A DNA stretch of 59,753 bases. It comes from a virus. Position numbers and translations under genes: made by a program. The DNA is taken from the UHGV virus genome UHGV-0209512; one strand, given 5' to 3'. Position 1 is the first letter of the stretch. The number at the start of each line of letters is the position of its first letter. Positions 7 to 59,753 of the stretch are shown piece after piece. The notes under the pieces were generated by a model. It saw nothing but the letters and a program-made list of their open reading frames with translations. It was not told the DNA's origin and did no database searches.

Positions 7-810
7 TTACAAGCCGTTCAGGGCTTCCGGTACTGGTACAGGTACGCGACCAGTCACACCATTAAATTTCTTCCAGCGTGCATACTGGGTCTTAACAGTA
101 TCTTCGTTCAGACCGTGACGACCAGCCAGGTTCAGAACATAAGAGATCGGGGCAGGCTGACCCAGCGTAGCGCTAATCTGGTCCATCAGAGCCCAGGCAC
201 GACCGCAGGAAGTTTCCGGTTGTGGACGACGAACACCGTTCTGTTCCGGCATACGATTAGCTTCTTTTTCTTTCTCGCGGAGCTCTTTAGCGCGCGCTTT
301 TTCCGCTTCTTTTTCTGCCTGTTTTGCAGCACGGATCTTGTCTTTGAAGCCTTTAATAGTAGCTTCCAGACCATCCACCAGACCCTGAGCAGAAGTTACA
401 GCACCAGACAGGTCTTCACCTTTAGACTTCTTAACGACAGCTTTCAGCTCTTTCAGAGCTTCTTTAATGGTCTTCAGGTTTGCAGATCCCTGAGTTTCTG
501 CTTCCGTGATCTGTTCAACAGTGCTTTCGTCGGTGACGGTAGCCAAAGAGTTTTTCAGAATTTCAGCAGCGTTAGCAATCGCATTAAATTTGTTTTCCGC
601 TTCAATGCGGATTTCAGCTTGTTTCTTTTCAGCGGCAGCTTTTTTCTCTGCTTCTTTTTTCTCTTTTGCTACGCGTGCAGCTTCAGCAGCAGCGGCTTTC
701 TTAGCTTCTGCATCATTCACAGTAGCTTCTTTCTTTGCAGGTTTAGCAGATTTTGCAGCGGCAGCAGCGGCAGCAGCGGCAGCGGCTTTTTTATCTTCAA
801 TGTTGCTCAT
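7..810 (-). CDS. Hypothetical protein with Ala/Lys/Glu-rich low-complexity N-terminal half and a C-terminal putative DNA-binding module
   Basis: ORF 7..819 trimmed to ATG at 808-810 preceded by GGAG; stop TAA at 7-9. Poly-Ala run encoded by a GCN repeat near 740-790. The last ~60 aa resemble the C-terminus of the 16228..16842 product. Confidence 0.55.
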   Translation of the reverse strand: MSNIEDKKAAAAAAAAAAAKSAKPAKKEATVNDAEAKKAAAAEAARVAKEKKEAEKKAAAEKKQAEIRIEAENKFNAIANAAEILKNSLATVTDESTVEQITEAETQGSANLKTIKEALKELKAVVKKSKGEDLSGAVTSAQGLVDGLEATIKGFKDKIRAAKQAEKEAEKARAKELREKEKEANRMPEQNGVRRPQPETSCGRAWALMDQISATLGQPAPISYVLNLAGRHGLNEDTVKTQYARWKKFNGVTGRVPVPVPEALNGL

Positions 811-937
811 TCTCTTCACTCCGAATTGTTATGGGTTCGTTTGTTACCAACGGGGTTAAATGTACCAAAGGATTTTGTGACACGCAACCCCTTATCTGAA
901 CATTTTTAAAAATATTTTTGATCAAGCTTAGAACTTA

Positions 938-1432
938 CTAGCTCTTTGCCCCTCTACCCGGCGTCCATGCAGCTTGCAATGCGGGTTGCTCACAAACGAC
1001 CCTGGCACCGGAAATAATACCACCCTCCCGTTCAGCATTGTATTTGACACGGGCAGGTTTCCAAAGTCCTTCATCCATTGACGGAACGTATTGCCCAATT
1101 TGAGGTGAGCAAAAGCCTTGGATATCGTATTCCACACAGAATTCGGCTTGTTCGCTGATTTGGGCGTGATCCAGGATTGTTTCTGGAAGTTGCGTAAAGT
1201 AATCAAACAAAATGCGCTCAACGATTTCCCGTTCATAAGGTGCAGCTCCTAAATTTTCTGTCAAGTTAATATAAAGCATTTGAAGATCAACATCTTCAAG
1301 ATCGTGTAAATCGTCTACTGGTGTTACCAGTGTTGACTCAGGGCAACAAATAATTCCAAGTTGGTGTAGTGTTAGCCAATTGGGATGCTTTGCCAAGAGT
1401 TCAAATTTATCTGTATCAATCAGGACGTACAT
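938..1432 (-). CDS. Hypothetical protein (164 aa)
   Basis: Intact ORF co-oriented with the replication operon; no motif recognised. Confidence 0.5.
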   Translation of the reverse strand: MYVLIDTDKFELLAKHPNWLTLHQLGIICCPESTLVTPVDDLHDLEDVDLQMLYINLTENLGAAPYEREIVERILFDYFTQLPETILDHAQISEQAEFCVEYDIQGFCSPQIGQYVPSMDEGLWKPARVKYNAEREGGIISGARVVCEQPALQAAWTPGRGAKS

Positions 1433-1491: not shown

Positions 1492-3474
1492 TTAGAACGG
1501 AACGTAATCCGGATCATCTACTTGTACAGGATTAACCACATTGTTCACTGTTATACCTTGCGTATTCTGCGAAACAATATCATCCCAGCTCACATCATCA
1601 TTATAGCTTGGACCTTCTGTTGTTCCATCCTGCCCGTATACTTTAACCTGAATAGCTTCGTCGTCCTGTGGTGTTTCAAACTTACCGAAACACGTACCAT
1701 CATAATCATAGTTCAATATCTCAGGCCATTTCTTATTGGTATGAACTTTGATGTATTTCGGTGTTTTAAGCATTGCAGCAACATCAAGAGCTTCTTCAAT
1801 AGTTTGTGGTAAAGGAAGATGCGTCCTTTTCTTCCACCATGCAACCGCTTTACGACCTGCCCAGTCACCATGAAGCAGAGCTACCCATTCGCTGAATATT
1901 TTACTACCGCAATAATAAGTCACCTTCATTGTTGGAGGTTTAGAGCTGTCATTGCGTTTAGTGTGCTTCGCATAAGTAACATGCGTAACTTTAAAGTCTT
2001 CAACTACCGGAATGTCCTGCTTGATTAATGCTTCGGTACTTGCTGCCTTTTTAAGTTTTGTCTGGAACTTAAACTCATGACCGCAAAATCCTTCTTTAAC
2101 ATAATCCGTTCCACGTAGTCTGAATCCCTTCAAATACAATTGTTGAACTTGTTCCTGTGTAACGCTATCCATAGGAATTGGTGCAAAGCCACCGCAATAG
2201 CGAGCAGATGCATGATTATACGACCCGCACACATCGCATTCTTTAACCGGAGCAGTACCAGCACCTTTTTCGCCCGGGCGCTTAGGTTTAACAGGGTCGT
2301 TAATAGGCCCCAAACGGCGCGTATTACCGCTGAAATCCAGTACAAGGCAGTTCTGCTTAGGGCTTGCTGCAATAGCTTGCAAGCGGCCTTCCTGCGTGGA
2401 AAGATCAAAACCCTCCGCGTACACCGGACGCGTACCGCGACCTAACATCTGGACCCATAGCACCGCCGACGCAGTGGGGCGGAGCATGATAATTAGATCG
2501 AGCATTGGATGGTCGAAACCTGTGGTTAAGACGTTGTTGTTCGTTAACGCTCGAAACTCTCCCCGCTTGAACTTTTCAATAATTTCATCACGCTCTTTTG
2601 CATCAAGCTTTGAGTGAATACATCCGCAGCTAATACCCATATCGTTCAGCATATCACACGCATCTTTAGCGTGTTCAATACCAGAACAAAATATAAGCCA
2701 GCTTTGACGGTCTTCACCACATTCAATTGCTTCCTCAAGTGCGCGGAGTGTTGCGTCGTCGCGGTTCACCGCACTTTGCAGCTCACTTTGAATAAACTCA
2801 CCACCGCGTTTACCTACCCCGTTGAGGTCCAGTTCCATCTTTGTACGCTTTGGCACAACCGGAAGCAAATAACCTTGCTCCAGGAACCAGTTAAAGGCTT
2901 CAGGGGTAGTCGCATCAAACGTTACTTTATCAAATAAAGCATCATCATCTTCGTTTTCCTTAACAATTGAGCCGTAACCCAGTCGATAAGGTGTAGCGGT
3001 AAGACCGATAATTTTTAAATACGGGTTAACTTCACGCAATGCTGCAAAGAACTTCTTATACATTGTTGCATCACGCGGACTAATAAGGTGCGCTTCATCC
3101 ACAAAGATTAGATCAACCTTGCCGAACTTTTTAGGATGCTTAGCAACAGATGCAATCCCCGCAAATGTGATAAGATTATAGACTTCTTTACGCTTCAAAC
3201 CTGCGCTGTAAATACCTGCTGGCGCTTCAGGCCAGACTTTCATTAATTTATCATAGTTTTGTGCAATTAACTCTTTGACGTGAGTTAACATCATTACGCG
3301 CTGGTTTGGATACCATTTATAAAGCAGATCGAGGAACCCCGCGATAACGAGCGATTTTCCTGTCCCTGTTGGTAACAGGATCAAAGGGTTCCCCGCGTTA
3401 CCCTTTTCAGCATCAAAATAGCGGAATACGCTATAAACTGCTTCCTGTTGATAATCGCGGAGCTGCATAATCAA
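1492..3474 (-). CDS. Superfamily 2 DEAH-box helicase with C-terminal extension
   Basis: Walker A-like LLPTGTGKS, DEAH box in IFVDEAHLIS, TAT-like motif in GLTATPYR; C-terminal Cys cluster CDVCGSYNHASARYC. Confidence 0.75.
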   Translation of the reverse strand: MIMQLRDYQQEAVYSVFRYFDAEKGNAGNPLILLPTGTGKSLVIAGFLDLLYKWYPNQRVMMLTHVKELIAQNYDKLMKVWPEAPAGIYSAGLKRKEVYNLITFAGIASVAKHPKKFGKVDLIFVDEAHLISPRDATMYKKFFAALREVNPYLKIIGLTATPYRLGYGSIVKENEDDDALFDKVTFDATTPEAFNWFLEQGYLLPVVPKRTKMELDLNGVGKRGGEFIQSELQSAVNRDDATLRALEEAIECGEDRQSWLIFCSGIEHAKDACDMLNDMGISCGCIHSKLDAKERDEIIEKFKRGEFRALTNNNVLTTGFDHPMLDLIIMLRPTASAVLWVQMLGRGTRPVYAEGFDLSTQEGRLQAIAASPKQNCLVLDFSGNTRRLGPINDPVKPKRPGEKGAGTAPVKECDVCGSYNHASARYCGGFAPIPMDSVTQEQVQQLYLKGFRLRGTDYVKEGFCGHEFKFQTKLKKAASTEALIKQDIPVVEDFKVTHVTYAKHTKRNDSSKPPTMKVTYYCGSKIFSEWVALLHGDWAGRKAVAWWKKRTHLPLPQTIEEALDVAAMLKTPKYIKVHTNKKWPEILNYDYDGTCFGKFETPQDDEAIQVKVYGQDGTTEGPSYNDDVSWDDIVSQNTQGITVNNVVNPVQVDDPDYVPF

Positions 3475-56069: not shown

Positions 56070-56603
56070 TTACAGGCTATAGTTTACGTGGCATTTCGAA
56101 GTTTCTTCGATGGTGCATTCTACAAGTTGAACACCATGTTCGTCAAGCAGTTGCGGTCCAATTACGTTAACCATATATGCAGCCAGATTTTCAGCTGTCG
56201 GGTTGAACGGTAAAGATACCAGCGAACCTAAGAAATGAAGGTTATCTTCCTGCTCTGTCATATCATAACCTTGAGCAGCATCACGACAAGTGAGATCTTT
56301 CAACCCTTGCATTAGCGAGTCTTTTTCCCAGTGCAGGAACTTATGATCCCAGTTATCTTCCAGCCACTGACAGAGCGTAGTTTTAACCACACTAAAATCG
56401 ATAACTCTCCCAACGTCGTCCAACTTACCTTCAACGGAGAAGCCTTTCGCGCTCGGGATGTAGTTTTCGCTTTCTATACGTTTCGGTGCAACCTTAAAAT
56501 GAAACTTATAGTTGTGACCGTGAAGATGACGACACTTGCTTTCGTGTCCTACAACACGATGTCCAGCACAAATTTCATGTGAACGAATTACTGTATAGCT
56601 CAT
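56070..56603 (-). CDS. queD: 6-carboxy-5,6,7,8-tetrahydropterin synthase (QueD-like, PTPS family)
   Basis: N-terminal EICAGHR ... HGHNY fits the PTPS/QueD metal-binding pattern; 177 aa, longer than typical QueD. Confidence 0.7.
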   Translation of the reverse strand: MSYTVIRSHEICAGHRVVGHESKCRHLHGHNYKFHFKVAPKRIESENYIPSAKGFSVEGKLDDVGRVIDFSVVKTTLCQWLEDNWDHKFLHWEKDSLMQGLKDLTCRDAAQGYDMTEQEDNLHFLGSLVSLPFNPTAENLAAYMVNVIGPQLLDEHGVQLVECTIEETSKCHVNYSL

Positions 56604-57190
56604 TTTAATACCTCTTTAGACTGTTCAATTTCTAACGCACGCTGTGCTGACGCAATAATGTCTTTCAAATCTTCTACCAGATTCTTATGACCGCGTTCAC
56701 CAGGCTGCAACGCCTTTTTAATCAAATGTTGTAAAGCTGGGTTAGTTGTCTTCCAAGCTTCCAAGACATCATACACGTCCACGATGCATTTTACAACATT
56801 CCCATTTTGATCTTTACCATAAATAACTTTCTGATATTTATTCATGGGAATTTTAGACGGTTCGTATTTCGTAAAAACCGCACCATTAAATGTATTACTT
56901 ATACTTATTCCAGAAGAAGGTTGATGGTACAATCCGGAGCGAGTGTTTTCGCTAGCCTGTTTGACGTAATCTTCCGTAACGATATATCGCCAAGCTATAA
57001 TATCTTGAACTTTATAAGGGCTATTCTCATCCATAGCTGAACGCCCTTCCATAGCCCAATCCCATCCATGTAATAGATTCTTAACGTGTGTGCCGTTGCG
57101 CAAACGAACTTCAAACTTCTCATTACGAAGAAAAATAGGCATTCCTTTACCGTCGTGTTGGTGCCAAATTTTATTCAAATTATCTTTCAT
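56600..57190 (-). CDS. Uncharacterised protein embedded in the 7-deazaguanine cluster (196-209 aa)
   Basis: ORF 56600..57229 (TTG start); alternative ATG 57188-57190; no recognisable motif; lies between queD and a membrane protein gene. Confidence 0.5.
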   Translation of the reverse strand: MKDNLNKIWHQHDGKGMPIFLRNEKFEVRLRNGTHVKNLLHGWDWAMEGRSAMDENSPYKVQDIIAWRYIVTEDYVKQASENTRSGLYHQPSSGISISNTFNGAVFTKYEPSKIPMNKYQKVIYGKDQNGNVVKCIVDVYDVLEAWKTTNPALQHLIKKALQPGERGHKNLVEDLKDIIASAQRALEIEQSKEVLK

Positions 57191-57191
57191 T

Positions 57192-57671
57192 TTACGCTCT
57201 CGCTGTACGTGAATGAACTTCGTAAACAACCCAAAGGATAGCGGACGCTGTGAACTTACTTAAGCTCATTGCCACCATAGATCCTGGATTAACAATACCT
57301 ATAATACTTAAGAACACAATGGAGTCAATCGGTACAGCTACTAAAGAGCTGATAAATACTCGTTGATGAAAAGGCTTCTTGGTGACCGTGTATACTACAT
57401 AATCAGCAAACTCACTAAGCGCAAAAGACGCAACGGATGCTACTACAACCGCAGGATCTCCGAACACCCAGCTAAGGACGCAACCAACAATCATTGCAGG
57501 GATGACGCCTTTGCCAGCGTTACGCTGTGCGTAATCACGCAAGACAAAGATAATGCCTACAAAGAAAGCCATCATTGGGACTACGCCGAGTGGCGTATTA
57601 AGCATTGGAAGGTAGGAAAAACCCAGGTTTACGAATGTAATTGCAGCCAGATAAGCAACAATAAATTTCAT
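57192..57671 (-). CDS. Polytopic membrane protein; candidate queuosine-precursor transporter
   Basis: ORF 57192..57761 trimmed to ATG 57669-57671 after GGAGAA; about five hydrophobic segments; transporter assignment is inferred from the neighbourhood only. Confidence 0.35.
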   Translation of the reverse strand: MKFIVAYLAAITFVNLGFSYLPMLNTPLGVVPMMAFFVGIIFVLRDYAQRNAGKGVIPAMIVGCVLSWVFGDPAVVVASVASFALSEFADYVVYTVTKKPFHQRVFISSLVAVPIDSIVFLSIIGIVNPGSMVAMSLSKFTASAILWVVYEVHSRTARA

Positions 57672-57791
57672 ACTTTTGTTCTCCAGTTTTAACAGCGTTA
57701 TTCGCTGGTTGTTGGGTTTAAAAGCTTTAGTAGTATAGTTGGGTTCCCGCACCCTAAACAATGCGCTAGCGGTGCGGTTTTCTCGGTAAGA

Positions 57792-58514
57792 TCAAACGTG
57801 TTTGCTGTAAGCTTTATCCATAAATTCGCTGTACCCTTTAGCACGCAGTTTACACGCCGGGCATTCCCCACAACCGTAACCCCAATCATGCAGAGTACGA
57901 CGGACGCCGTTATAGCAAGTATGCGACTGCTCAATTACTGTGGTTAAGAAACCGACCTTATCCGCCAGCTCAAACGTTTCTGCTTTATTTAAACGCATAA
58001 GCGGAGTGACAAAATGGATATCTGTTTCATATCCAACGTTTAACGTAGCTTCAAGCAGATCTACAAACTGCTGACGACAATCAGGATAACCGCTATAGTC
58101 CGTTTCACAAACGCCCGTAACCACATATCGGGCTCCAACCTTCTGCGCGTAAGCGTGCGCGGTAGTCAGGAAAAGGGCATTACGGTTTGGCACAAAGCTT
58201 GCCGGAAGGTTGTTGTGCTGTTCGTGATGTTCGTTAACATCACCTTCGTTCCCTATTAAAGCGCTATTACCAATCTGTTTCAAAGCAGGTAATTCGAAGA
58301 CAACAAACGGAACATCGTGCTCTTTACAAATTTGATTTGCACAAGCCAGCTCAATGTTATGACGTTGACCGTATGCAAAACCAATAGCGTAGACTTTATC
58401 GTAGTTATTCAGTGCAAGACCTAGACAAGTCACGCTGTCCTGGCCGCCAGACAGGACGACAACGGCGGAGTTATGATTTTTTACAGGGAATACCAGTTTA
58501 TCTAATTTATTCAT
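57792..58514 (-). CDS. queC: 7-cyano-7-deazaguanine synthase
   Basis: PP-loop SGGQDS near N-terminus and C-terminal Cys cluster CYNG ... CGECPAC; 240 aa, no fused amidotransferase domain. Confidence 0.85.
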   Translation of the reverse strand: MNKLDKLVFPVKNHNSAVVVLSGGQDSVTCLGLALNNYDKVYAIGFAYGQRHNIELACANQICKEHDVPFVVFELPALKQIGNSALIGNEGDVNEHHEQHNNLPASFVPNRNALFLTTAHAYAQKVGARYVVTGVCETDYSGYPDCRQQFVDLLEATLNVGYETDIHFVTPLMRLNKAETFELADKVGFLTTVIEQSHTCYNGVRRTLHDWGYGCGECPACKLRAKGYSEFMDKAYSKHV

Positions 58515-58778
58515 TTACTTCACCTCTTCATAAGTAATTTTAAAGATATCAGGTTTGCAAGGATAAATCTCACCTTTCACACCCTGAACAATATAATCAC
58601 CAACATTAGCAAGATGATCACCTTCTAGTGTTTTGATAGTAAAGCTACCATCTTTATTTTCAATAGCTGTGCCATTTAAACAAGCTTTACTAAACCATGT
58701 AGGCGTTGAACCAATTTCCATTGTTGTAGTTAGCAGGAATGCTTCAACTTCTACAGGCTTCTTTCTAAATTTAGCCAT
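58515..58778 (-). CDS. Hypothetical protein (87 aa) between queC and queE
   Basis: Intact ORF; no motif. Confidence 0.45.
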   Translation of the reverse strand: MAKFRKKPVEVEAFLLTTTMEIGSTPTWFSKACLNGTAIENKDGSFTIKTLEGDHLANVGDYIVQGVKGEIYPCKPDIFKITYEEVK

Positions 58779-58983
58779 TTACTTCACCTTTAATATCACA
58801 AGGGTTGATTGTTACGTTAGACATTACGATTGGATGATTGCGCGCTCCAATTGTACTAACGTGATTAATATCCAATTCTACATGCACGCCTTGCATAGTA
58901 GCGTGAGCAATTGAAGAATTAAGTTTTTCTACCAGCTCAGTGATCATTTCCTGATGCTGTTTTGCTTCTTCCAAAGTAATCAT
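58771..58983 (-). CDS. Hypothetical protein (70 aa) between queC and queE
   Basis: Intact ORF; no motif. Confidence 0.45.
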   Translation of the reverse strand: MITLEEAKQHQEMITELVEKLNSSIAHATMQGVHVELDINHVSTIGARNHPIVMSNVTINPCDIKGEVNG

Positions 58984-59690
58984 TATTCCACCCCGATATA
59001 TTTGTGGACCTGAAGCTGCAACGTGTACCCGTGTTTCATACAGCTTTGGACAACCGCTTGGATGTTACTGTGGTTAAGGTCTTCATCCTGCTCGTCCATT
59101 GGCTGTAAATATATCTTACCCTTGAACCCCTTCGGAGGTCTAGCGATAAATGGCGTAGCCTGATGATCTAATGCTTGAAGAGGTAAACCATCTTCCACGT
59201 TTACACAGCACGCTTTAAGCACATATTTAAATGCATTAGCGCGGTACAGCACAGAAGGATGAATTTTTGTAGTCTTGGGGCTACATACAATTACTGGTAT
59301 CTGGGAAAAGTTCTTAGGTAAAGGCATAGACCCATTCGTTTCAATCTGTACAAGATACCCGCGCGATAACAGTTGTTCGACAAACGGGTTAATTTGCTGG
59401 CGGAATGGTTCGCCCCCAGTAATAACCACAAGTGAGGTGCTATTACCTGACTCCAGTTTACGGCTTTCAATCAATCGCATAATATCCACAATGTGATAAA
59501 GAGAACGACCAACAGTATAATCGGTATCACAGCCAGGACATTGCAGATTACACCCAGCAAGACGCACAAATACAGCAGGTTGGCCGCAGAATGGACCTTC
59601 ACCCTGAATGGTAGAGAATACCGAATGCACGTCTAAATACATATCGTTTTCTTTAGAACGGGACTCGGGAGCTTGTTGATTAATATTCAT
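58983..59690 (-). CDS. queE: 7-carboxy-7-deazaguanine synthase (radical SAM)
   Basis: QGEGPFCGQP and radical-SAM CNLQCPGC (C-x3-C-x2-C); AGGA RBS 7 nt before ATG. Confidence 0.8.
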   Translation of the reverse strand: MNINQQAPESRSKENDMYLDVHSVFSTIQGEGPFCGQPAVFVRLAGCNLQCPGCDTDYTVGRSLYHIVDIMRLIESRKLESGNSTSLVVITGGEPFRQQINPFVEQLLSRGYLVQIETNGSMPLPKNFSQIPVIVCSPKTTKIHPSVLYRANAFKYVLKACCVNVEDGLPLQALDHQATPFIARPPKGFKGKIYLQPMDEQDEDLNHSNIQAVVQSCMKHGYTLQLQVHKYIGVE

Positions 59691-59712
59691 CTTAAATCCT
59701 CTAGTGAAAAAG

Positions 59713-59734
59713 AAAGCGCCTCATTGGGCGCTTT
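59713..59734 (-). terminator. Stem-loop AAAGCGCC-TCATTG-GGCGCTTT at the window edge (minus-strand terminator-like)
   Basis: 8-bp stem; on the minus strand followed by CUUUUUC, 22 nt upstream of queE ATG; a TATAAT-like hexamer (complement of 59736-59741) lies just beyond. Confidence 0.35.
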
Positions 59735-59753
59735 CATTATAACGTGATATGTT

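Follow-up and report, generated by a model that had tools for sequence, protein, structure and literature searches.

Organization of the queE-queC block

The window analysed here is the whole 59,753-nucleotide stretch of virus genome UHGV-0209512. It is a whole Seuratvirus genome (Queuovirinae) in circularly permuted form and is related to CAjan and Seurat; the genes that precede queE in relatives are found at the window start (Table 1). The 2-kb region round queE and queC matched 34 Seuratvirus records at 93–95% DNA identity, and the unmatched share of this region, about 12%, is orf87. The first-pass annotation had reported two intact ORFs of 87 and 70 aa with overlapping stop and start codons between queC and queE. 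Both are present as described, here named orf87 and orf70, and their coordinates were confirmed; the strand had to be corrected, both ORFs being encoded on the minus strand. The order in the minus-strand transcript is queE, orf70, orf87, queC.

Table 1. Features of the queE-queC block and of the genes that precede it in relatives.
Feature	Position	Strand	Match or content
queE, 7-carboxy-7-deazaguanine synthase, first of the four-gene block	58983-59690	-	phrog_2076, E 2.8e-68
orf70, conserved 70-aa small protein	58771-58983	-	phrog_26258
orf87, acquired cassette, predicted 87-aa SH3/Tudor-like protein	58515-58778	-	phrog_419/4502
queC, 7-cyano-7-deazaguanine synthase, last of the block	57792-58514	-	Pfam QueC, E 8.6e-75
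Direct repeat copy 1, AGGTGAAGTAAATG	58776-58789	-	orf70 3' end, SD motif, orf87 ATG
Direct repeat copy 2, AGGTGAAGTAAATG	58512-58525	-	orf87 3' end and stop, SD motif, queC ATG
Hairpin resembling an intrinsic terminator, before queE; upstream boundary of the queE-orf70-orf87-queC unit	59712-59735	-	
Gene preceding queE in relatives (267 aa there; 270-aa ORF here)	7-819	-	
164-aa gene, precedes queE in relatives	938-1432	-	
Helicase, precedes queE in relatives	1492-3474	-	

The queE product matched the Radical_SAM and Fer4_12 Pfam families and showed 98% aa identity to Seuratvirus QueE. Along the block, the queE stop and the orf70 start have one base in common (TAATG, a 1-nt overlap), orf70 runs 8 nt into orf87 (ATGGCTAA), and the queC ATG abuts the orf87 stop with no gap (TAAATG, 0 nt). 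Shine–Dalgarno (SD)-like motifs (GGGGTGGA, AGGTGA and GAGGTGA) were located 5–7 nt upstream of each start. The annotation of phage Seurat carries a terminator at the position equivalent to the hairpin upstream of queE, and no minus-strand terminator-like site was detected inside the queE-queC block. A single weak promoter-like match on the minus strand (9/12) falls within orf87; promoter-like matches did not exceed the chance expectation.

The gap between queC and yhhQ (57672-57791, about 120 nt) is the sole sizeable non-coding gap of the cluster. Its minus-strand sequence includes a hairpin (CCGCACC-N17-GGTGCGG) that precedes the preQ0-transporter gene. No preQ1 riboswitch or other RNA family was credibly identified by Rfam anywhere in the cluster, this gap included. 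The yhhQ ORF called mechanically from a TTG (57192-57761, minus strand) has 189 aa; in relatives, the annotated product has 159 aa and starts at the ATG at 57671, preceded by an SD-like GGAG; this shorter form is probably correct.

Two variable slots flank orf70

Gene order across the block is queE-84aa-orf70-queC in KS_A3, queE-orf70-62aa-queC in CAjan, queE-84aa-orf70-62aa-queC in Seurat, queE-88aa-orf70-queC in STP-SP5 and queE-orf70-queC in Hafnia phage yong3. Slot A (between queE and orf70) is empty in the window and in CAjan, and holds a gene of 84, 88, 99 or 148 aa in relatives, those of 99 and 148 aa coming from metagenomic Seuratvirus contigs. Slot B (between orf70 and queC) is empty in KS_A3, STP-SP5 and yong3, is occupied by orf87 in the window, and in CAjan (L002:1317-1505) and Seurat (gp40, L003:1302-1490) holds a 62-aa distant paralogue of orf70. 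This 62-aa gene has the helix motif of orf70 and is recovered by the orf70 profile; it probably arose from an old tandem duplication. The slot A genes of 84, 88 and 99 aa belong to phrog_1972, and the slot A occupants of KS_A3 and Seurat (84 aa) and of STP-SP5 (88 aa) were on this assignment rejected as relatives of orf87.

In a four-way DNA alignment, each cassette starts at the ATG that serves the following gene where the slot is empty and is closed by a new SD-stop-ATG; therefore, stop/start coupling is retained in every variant. The queE-queC junction is a hot spot at which small genes are swapped with translational coupling intact.

Conservation and fold of orf70

The two ORFs differ in distribution. 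Comparison across related phages found orf70 in each of the 35 cultured Seuratvirus records, without exception between queE and queC, and orf87 in none of the 35, CAjan included. Altogether, orf70 was found in 39 phage records, 34 of them at 95–100% aa identity, and divergent relatives occupy the same position in STP-SP5 (67% aa identity), L019 (58%) and yong3 (45%). Against other Seuratviruses, orf70 showed 7–14 synonymous and 0–2 non-synonymous changes (dN/dS 0.00–0.03); dN/dS in the matching comparisons was 0.013–0.023 for queC and 0.02–0.07 for queE. Across genera, orf70 diverges much faster than QueC or QueE. Judged from these comparisons, orf70 is a genus-level core gene under strong purifying selection. 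Residues 1-69 align to profile positions 1-69 of 70 in phrog_26258 (E 1.1e-50), and the phrog_26258 proteins CAjan AJT60529 and Seurat gp41 are orthologues with 97–100% aa identity in the same position downstream of queE, with no substantive difference from orf70.

The AlphaFold model of orf70 was confident (pLDDT 82.5) and consists of a 27-residue helix (residues 4-30) and two strands (33-45 and 48-59), i.e., a helix followed by a long beta-hairpin. The best structural match was E. coli GnsA (PDB 4xo2; 57 residues aligned), a small prophage-associated protein that likewise combines a helix with a hairpin. We detected no conserved Cys/His pattern, no nucleotide-binding motif and no catalytic or cofactor motif in orf70, and its single Cys is unconserved outside the genus. 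Because the helix-plus-hairpin fold comes without a cofactor motif, the most likely role of orf70 is that of a small protein-binding factor in the early/DNA-metabolism programme.

Orthologues of orf70 carry the label "radical SAM domain-containing protein". A protein of this class would have a CxxxCxxC [4Fe-4S] motif inside a TIM barrel, partial or full, of about 200 aa or more; orf70 has neither, and no Radical_SAM Pfam match to it appeared even at E 10. The label is an error because orf70 has no conserved Cys/His pattern. It is attached to phrog_26258 and CAjan AJT60529 and is passing into new Seuratvirus annotations through PHROG-based pipelines.

The orf70 family beyond Seuratvirus

An exhaustive profile search of 1.84 billion representatives recovered about 62 clusters of orf70 relatives, nearly all of them stand-alone proteins of 47–82 aa. 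In Providencia phage PSTCR4, whose QueE shares only 49% identity with that of the window, a 66-aa gene between queE and gat-queC matched the orf70 profile (E 2.7e-7, from a search of a small local database); tblastn with this protein retrieved Providencia phages only. Relatives with 34–37% identity lie upstream of rdgC in Nonanavirus, and no dpdA, folE, queD, queE or queC was detectable in the 50 kb of Nonanavirus PJ16 searched. Deazaguanine genes were likewise not detectable in the searched stretches of the other contigs with orf70 relatives. Neighbourhoods of the orf70 family and of phrog_419 members were sampled in about eight contexts; the neighbours of distant orf70 relatives were small early genes, a terminase, or PDDEXK, SNF2 and thymidine-hypermodification genes. 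Conversely, no orf70 relative was found at the queE loci of 9g, K9PH25C2 and NP1 despite the presence of queE and gat-queC; between these genes lies a gene of 253 aa or of 112 aa, or the slot is empty.

One distant relative lies on an uncultured phage contig (L028:3501-3719) between a PDDEXK nuclease gene and SNF2, TAGT and HMUDK genes. It is a second case of the orf70 family near DNA-modification genes, here those of thymidine hypermodification.

Both ORFs had been proposed in the first-pass annotation as candidate accessory components of the modification system. For orf70, its conservation and its synteny with queE and queC agree with this proposal, and the occurrence of the family in phages without deazaguanine genes does not. 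The proposal would make orf70 a dedicated deazaguanine accessory factor held between queE and queC by selection. Such a factor could be a small adaptor that links QueE with QueC for the transfer of CDG, or, since host QueF and Tgt divert preQ0, an inhibitor of these enzymes. The invariable position in all Seuratviruses examined and in divergent relatives, the profile-detectable homologue at the same place in PSTCR4, the translational coupling to both enzymes, a dN/dS as low as that of queC, and the persistence of orf70 while adjoining cassettes turn over all favor this reading. However, family members stand next to rdgC in Nonanavirus and on other contigs with no detectable deazaguanine genes, three phages have queE and gat-queC without orf70, a conserved Cys/His or nucleotide-binding motif is lacking, and the protein diverges across genera much faster than the enzymes it would serve. 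On balance, we consider a dedicated accessory factor rather unlikely. The constancy of the orf70 slot in Seuratvirus and PSTCR4, despite the turnover of its neighbours, could reflect selection for queE/queC linkage rather than inheritance alone.

Kot et al. (2020) described a 12-gene deazaguanine cluster in CAjan in which six genes are without assigned function, the orf70 orthologue AJT60529 among them, and the published CAjan deletions concern only folE, queC, dpdA and yhhQ (PMC7544227). Cui et al. (2023) set aside the roughly 60-aa unknown proteins of another deazaguanine cluster as enzyme candidates (PMC10516641), and the small ORFs are not discussed in the Seuratvirus comparative paper (PMC5758909). 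It is conceivable, but in our estimation improbable, that orf70 and its 62-aa paralogue represent a so far overlooked small protein with an accessory or regulatory role in phage deazaguanine pathways. If so, orf70 would be retained between queE and queC in Seuratvirus and Craquatrovirus through binding of QueE/QueC or through a block of preQ0-consuming host enzymes, and its relatives would do an equivalent job for other DNA-metabolism or modification modules, such as that of L028.

Evidence that orf87 is a foreign cassette

The GC content of orf87 is 34.5% (GC3 21.6%) compared with 44.5% for the genome, which ranks it within the bottom 1.4% of 264-bp windows. The 14-mer AGGTGAAGTAAATG is present in exactly two copies in the 59.7-kb window, 264 bp apart (chance expectation 0.02). 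Removal of one copy together with the intervening sequence recovers the orf70/queC junction of KS_A3, in which orf70 directly overlaps queC. The two copies are read in different frames, copy 1 encoding the orf70 C-terminus G-E-V-N and copy 2 the orf87 ending E-V-K-stop, and the latter ending recurs in unrelated family members. We infer that the repeats fit recombination at chance microhomology better than a transposition-type duplication.

Slot B of about 25 metagenomic contigs contains orf87, in one case identical and in about 24 with a 95%-identical protein. Between the window and P0010-type contigs, DNA identity was 97.3% for orf87 and 93–94% for queE, orf70 and queC; dS was 0.056 for orf87 and 0.28–0.37 for the flanks. 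This lower divergence of orf87, calculated from seven differences only, suggests that the cassette spread after the backbones had diverged. Taken together, these sequence features mark orf87 as a recent foreign AT-rich cassette of 264 bp.

The first-pass annotation had described both ORFs as inserted, which is borne out for orf87 and not for orf70, and had offered unrelated morons as the alternative to accessory components. Morons are an established concept for lambdoid phages (Hendrix, Juhala). Like them, orf87 deviates in base composition and adds a gene between two that are direct neighbours in relatives. Unlike them, it depends for expression on the host operon and on translational coupling, and no promoter or terminator of its own flanks the cassette on its strand; therefore, orf87 is not a classical moron. 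As an unrelated insertion, with no homologue in any of the 35 cultured Seuratvirus records, it does correspond to the second of the two proposals.

Family and possible role of orf87

The two ORFs had also been said to carry no recognisable motif. This holds for Pfam and NCBIfam, which, like PADLOC, gave nothing above threshold for either ORF; PHROG, however, gave strong full-length matches for both, those of orf87 being to phrog_419 (E 5.6e-30) and phrog_4502 (E 1.3e-26). Sequence searches with single sequences and profiles found no solved relative of either ORF, and no papers were found on PGDYG or on the PHROG identifiers of the two ORFs. Both families are already catalogued, and novelty is limited to the placement of orf87.

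The orf87 family comprises 841 phage records and 1115 protein clusters (at E<=1e-5) from phages of Gram-positive and Gram-negative hosts (Bacillus, Clostridioides, Streptococcus, Mycobacterium, Gordonia, Klebsiella, Acinetobacter and Caulobacter), and its contexts vary among head-morphogenesis, replication and early regions. Proteins of phrog_419/phrog_4502, including SPP1 gene 5, SPO1 gp34.82 and the C-terminal part of Kmi2C UYE92022, match orf87 over its full length at 49–73% identity and have in common with it the motifs RKKPV, TLEG and GD.I..GVKGE.YPCKPDIF..TY. Among orf87 and 31 diverse homologues, 25 columns are invariant (RKKPV, TLEG, D61, GV.GE.YPCK.DIF..TY). Comparison with the closest cultured homologue, that of Klebsiella phage Kmi2C (73% aa identity), gave a dN/dS of 0.14. 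The location in a queE-queC operon is without parallel among cultured phage records. The match of orf87 to Pfam PGDYG (PF14083) covered residues 57-86 only and scored 14.4 bits (E 0.049), below the 27 bits of the gathering threshold. Of 32 family members, only 5 reached E 0.01 against PGDYG.

The AlphaFold model of orf87 was confident (pLDDT 88.3), and a fold search returned generic SH3/Tudor matches, with CarD/Mfd-like folds also among the matches; the product is predicted to be a single-domain SH3/Tudor-like beta-barrel. In other phages, the domain is fused to a MazG/PRA-PH pyrophosphohydrolase (Microbacterium phage Pajaza gp41, L029:1489-2238), to a membrane anchor (Curtobacterium phage AddiRose gp61; gp60-gp61 at L030:1239-2303) or to a Lar-like zinc ribbon (contig P0082), and in Kmi2C it is preceded by a P-loop-like N-terminal segment. 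AddiRose gp61 lies directly downstream of an Acb2/Tad1-like cyclic-nucleotide sponge gene, an arrangement that hints at a family function related to nucleotides or to counter-defence. Because the domain is fused to MazG and other domains, orf87 may be a stand-alone binding module for a target common to very different hosts; this target might be a nucleotide, a nucleic acid or core host machinery.

In CAjan, about 32% of G is replaced by dPreQ0 (PMC6884629). CAjan is modified without orf87, indicating that orf87 is not needed for the modification; its absence from the cultured Seuratviruses, dPreQ0-carrying CAjan among them, speaks against the proposed role as a modification component. We also considered that orf87 alters or extends the modification chemistry, for example by binding preQ0/CDG or by shifting DpdA targeting, and gives its sub-lineage a variant modification. 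The position inside the queE-queC operon, the near-invariant charged and Cys residues of the family, which suggest a ligand site, and the fusion of some members to nucleotide-handling domains would suit such a function. Nevertheless, relatives occur in phages without deazaguanine genes (SPP1, SPO1 and C. difficile phages), fully modified CAjan is without the gene (PMC6884629), and composition and flanking repeats mark a recent arrival, so that we regard a variant modification as very unlikely.

Although the region is full of spurious 60–119 aa ORFs in other frames, the idea that one or both ORFs are unexpressed chance open frames in an intergenic spacer is effectively refuted by the strong purifying selection on both, their full-length family matches, the SD motifs with coupled starts and the confident folded models; on these criteria, orf70 and orf87 are both real genes.

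A further candidate lies elsewhere in the cluster. The 209-aa ORF between yhhQ and queD (56600-57229, minus strand) has a C-terminal domain of approximately 80 aa in common with 9g gp07 (49% identity, E 2e-18). The latter (L020:3262-4023, 253 aa) occupies the queE/gat-queC slot of phage 9g. As a candidate accessory component, this domain, which is found in deazaguanine clusters from two genera, ranks above orf87.

Discussion

The explanation that we consider probable as a whole is that a fixed orf70 is flanked by two variable slots, that orf87 is a foreign cassette in one of them, and that neither gene is needed for dPreQ0. Under this explanation, orf70 would not be an enzyme but a small oligomeric factor that binds proteins within the early/DNA-metabolism programme. 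Its position between queE and queC would reflect the gene order of its ancestors, with a possible benefit from co-translation, but it would not be a requirement for dPreQ0 formation. The cassette would have entered an empty slot B by recombination at the 14-bp microhomology spanning SD, stop and ATG, and would then have spread among some Seuratviruses. Its product would stand outside preQ0 synthesis and insertion. Insertion at an SD-stop-start junction preserves translational coupling.

Neither orf70 nor orf87 appears to be required by the modification pathway. The current understanding of deazaguanine modification is unchanged by these findings, and orf87 can leave any model of the deazaguanine pathway, while orf70 is among the few unknown genes linked to queE/queC across genera. 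The locus is ordinary phage mosaicism, and it provides a clean example of the uptake of foreign genes into phage operons.
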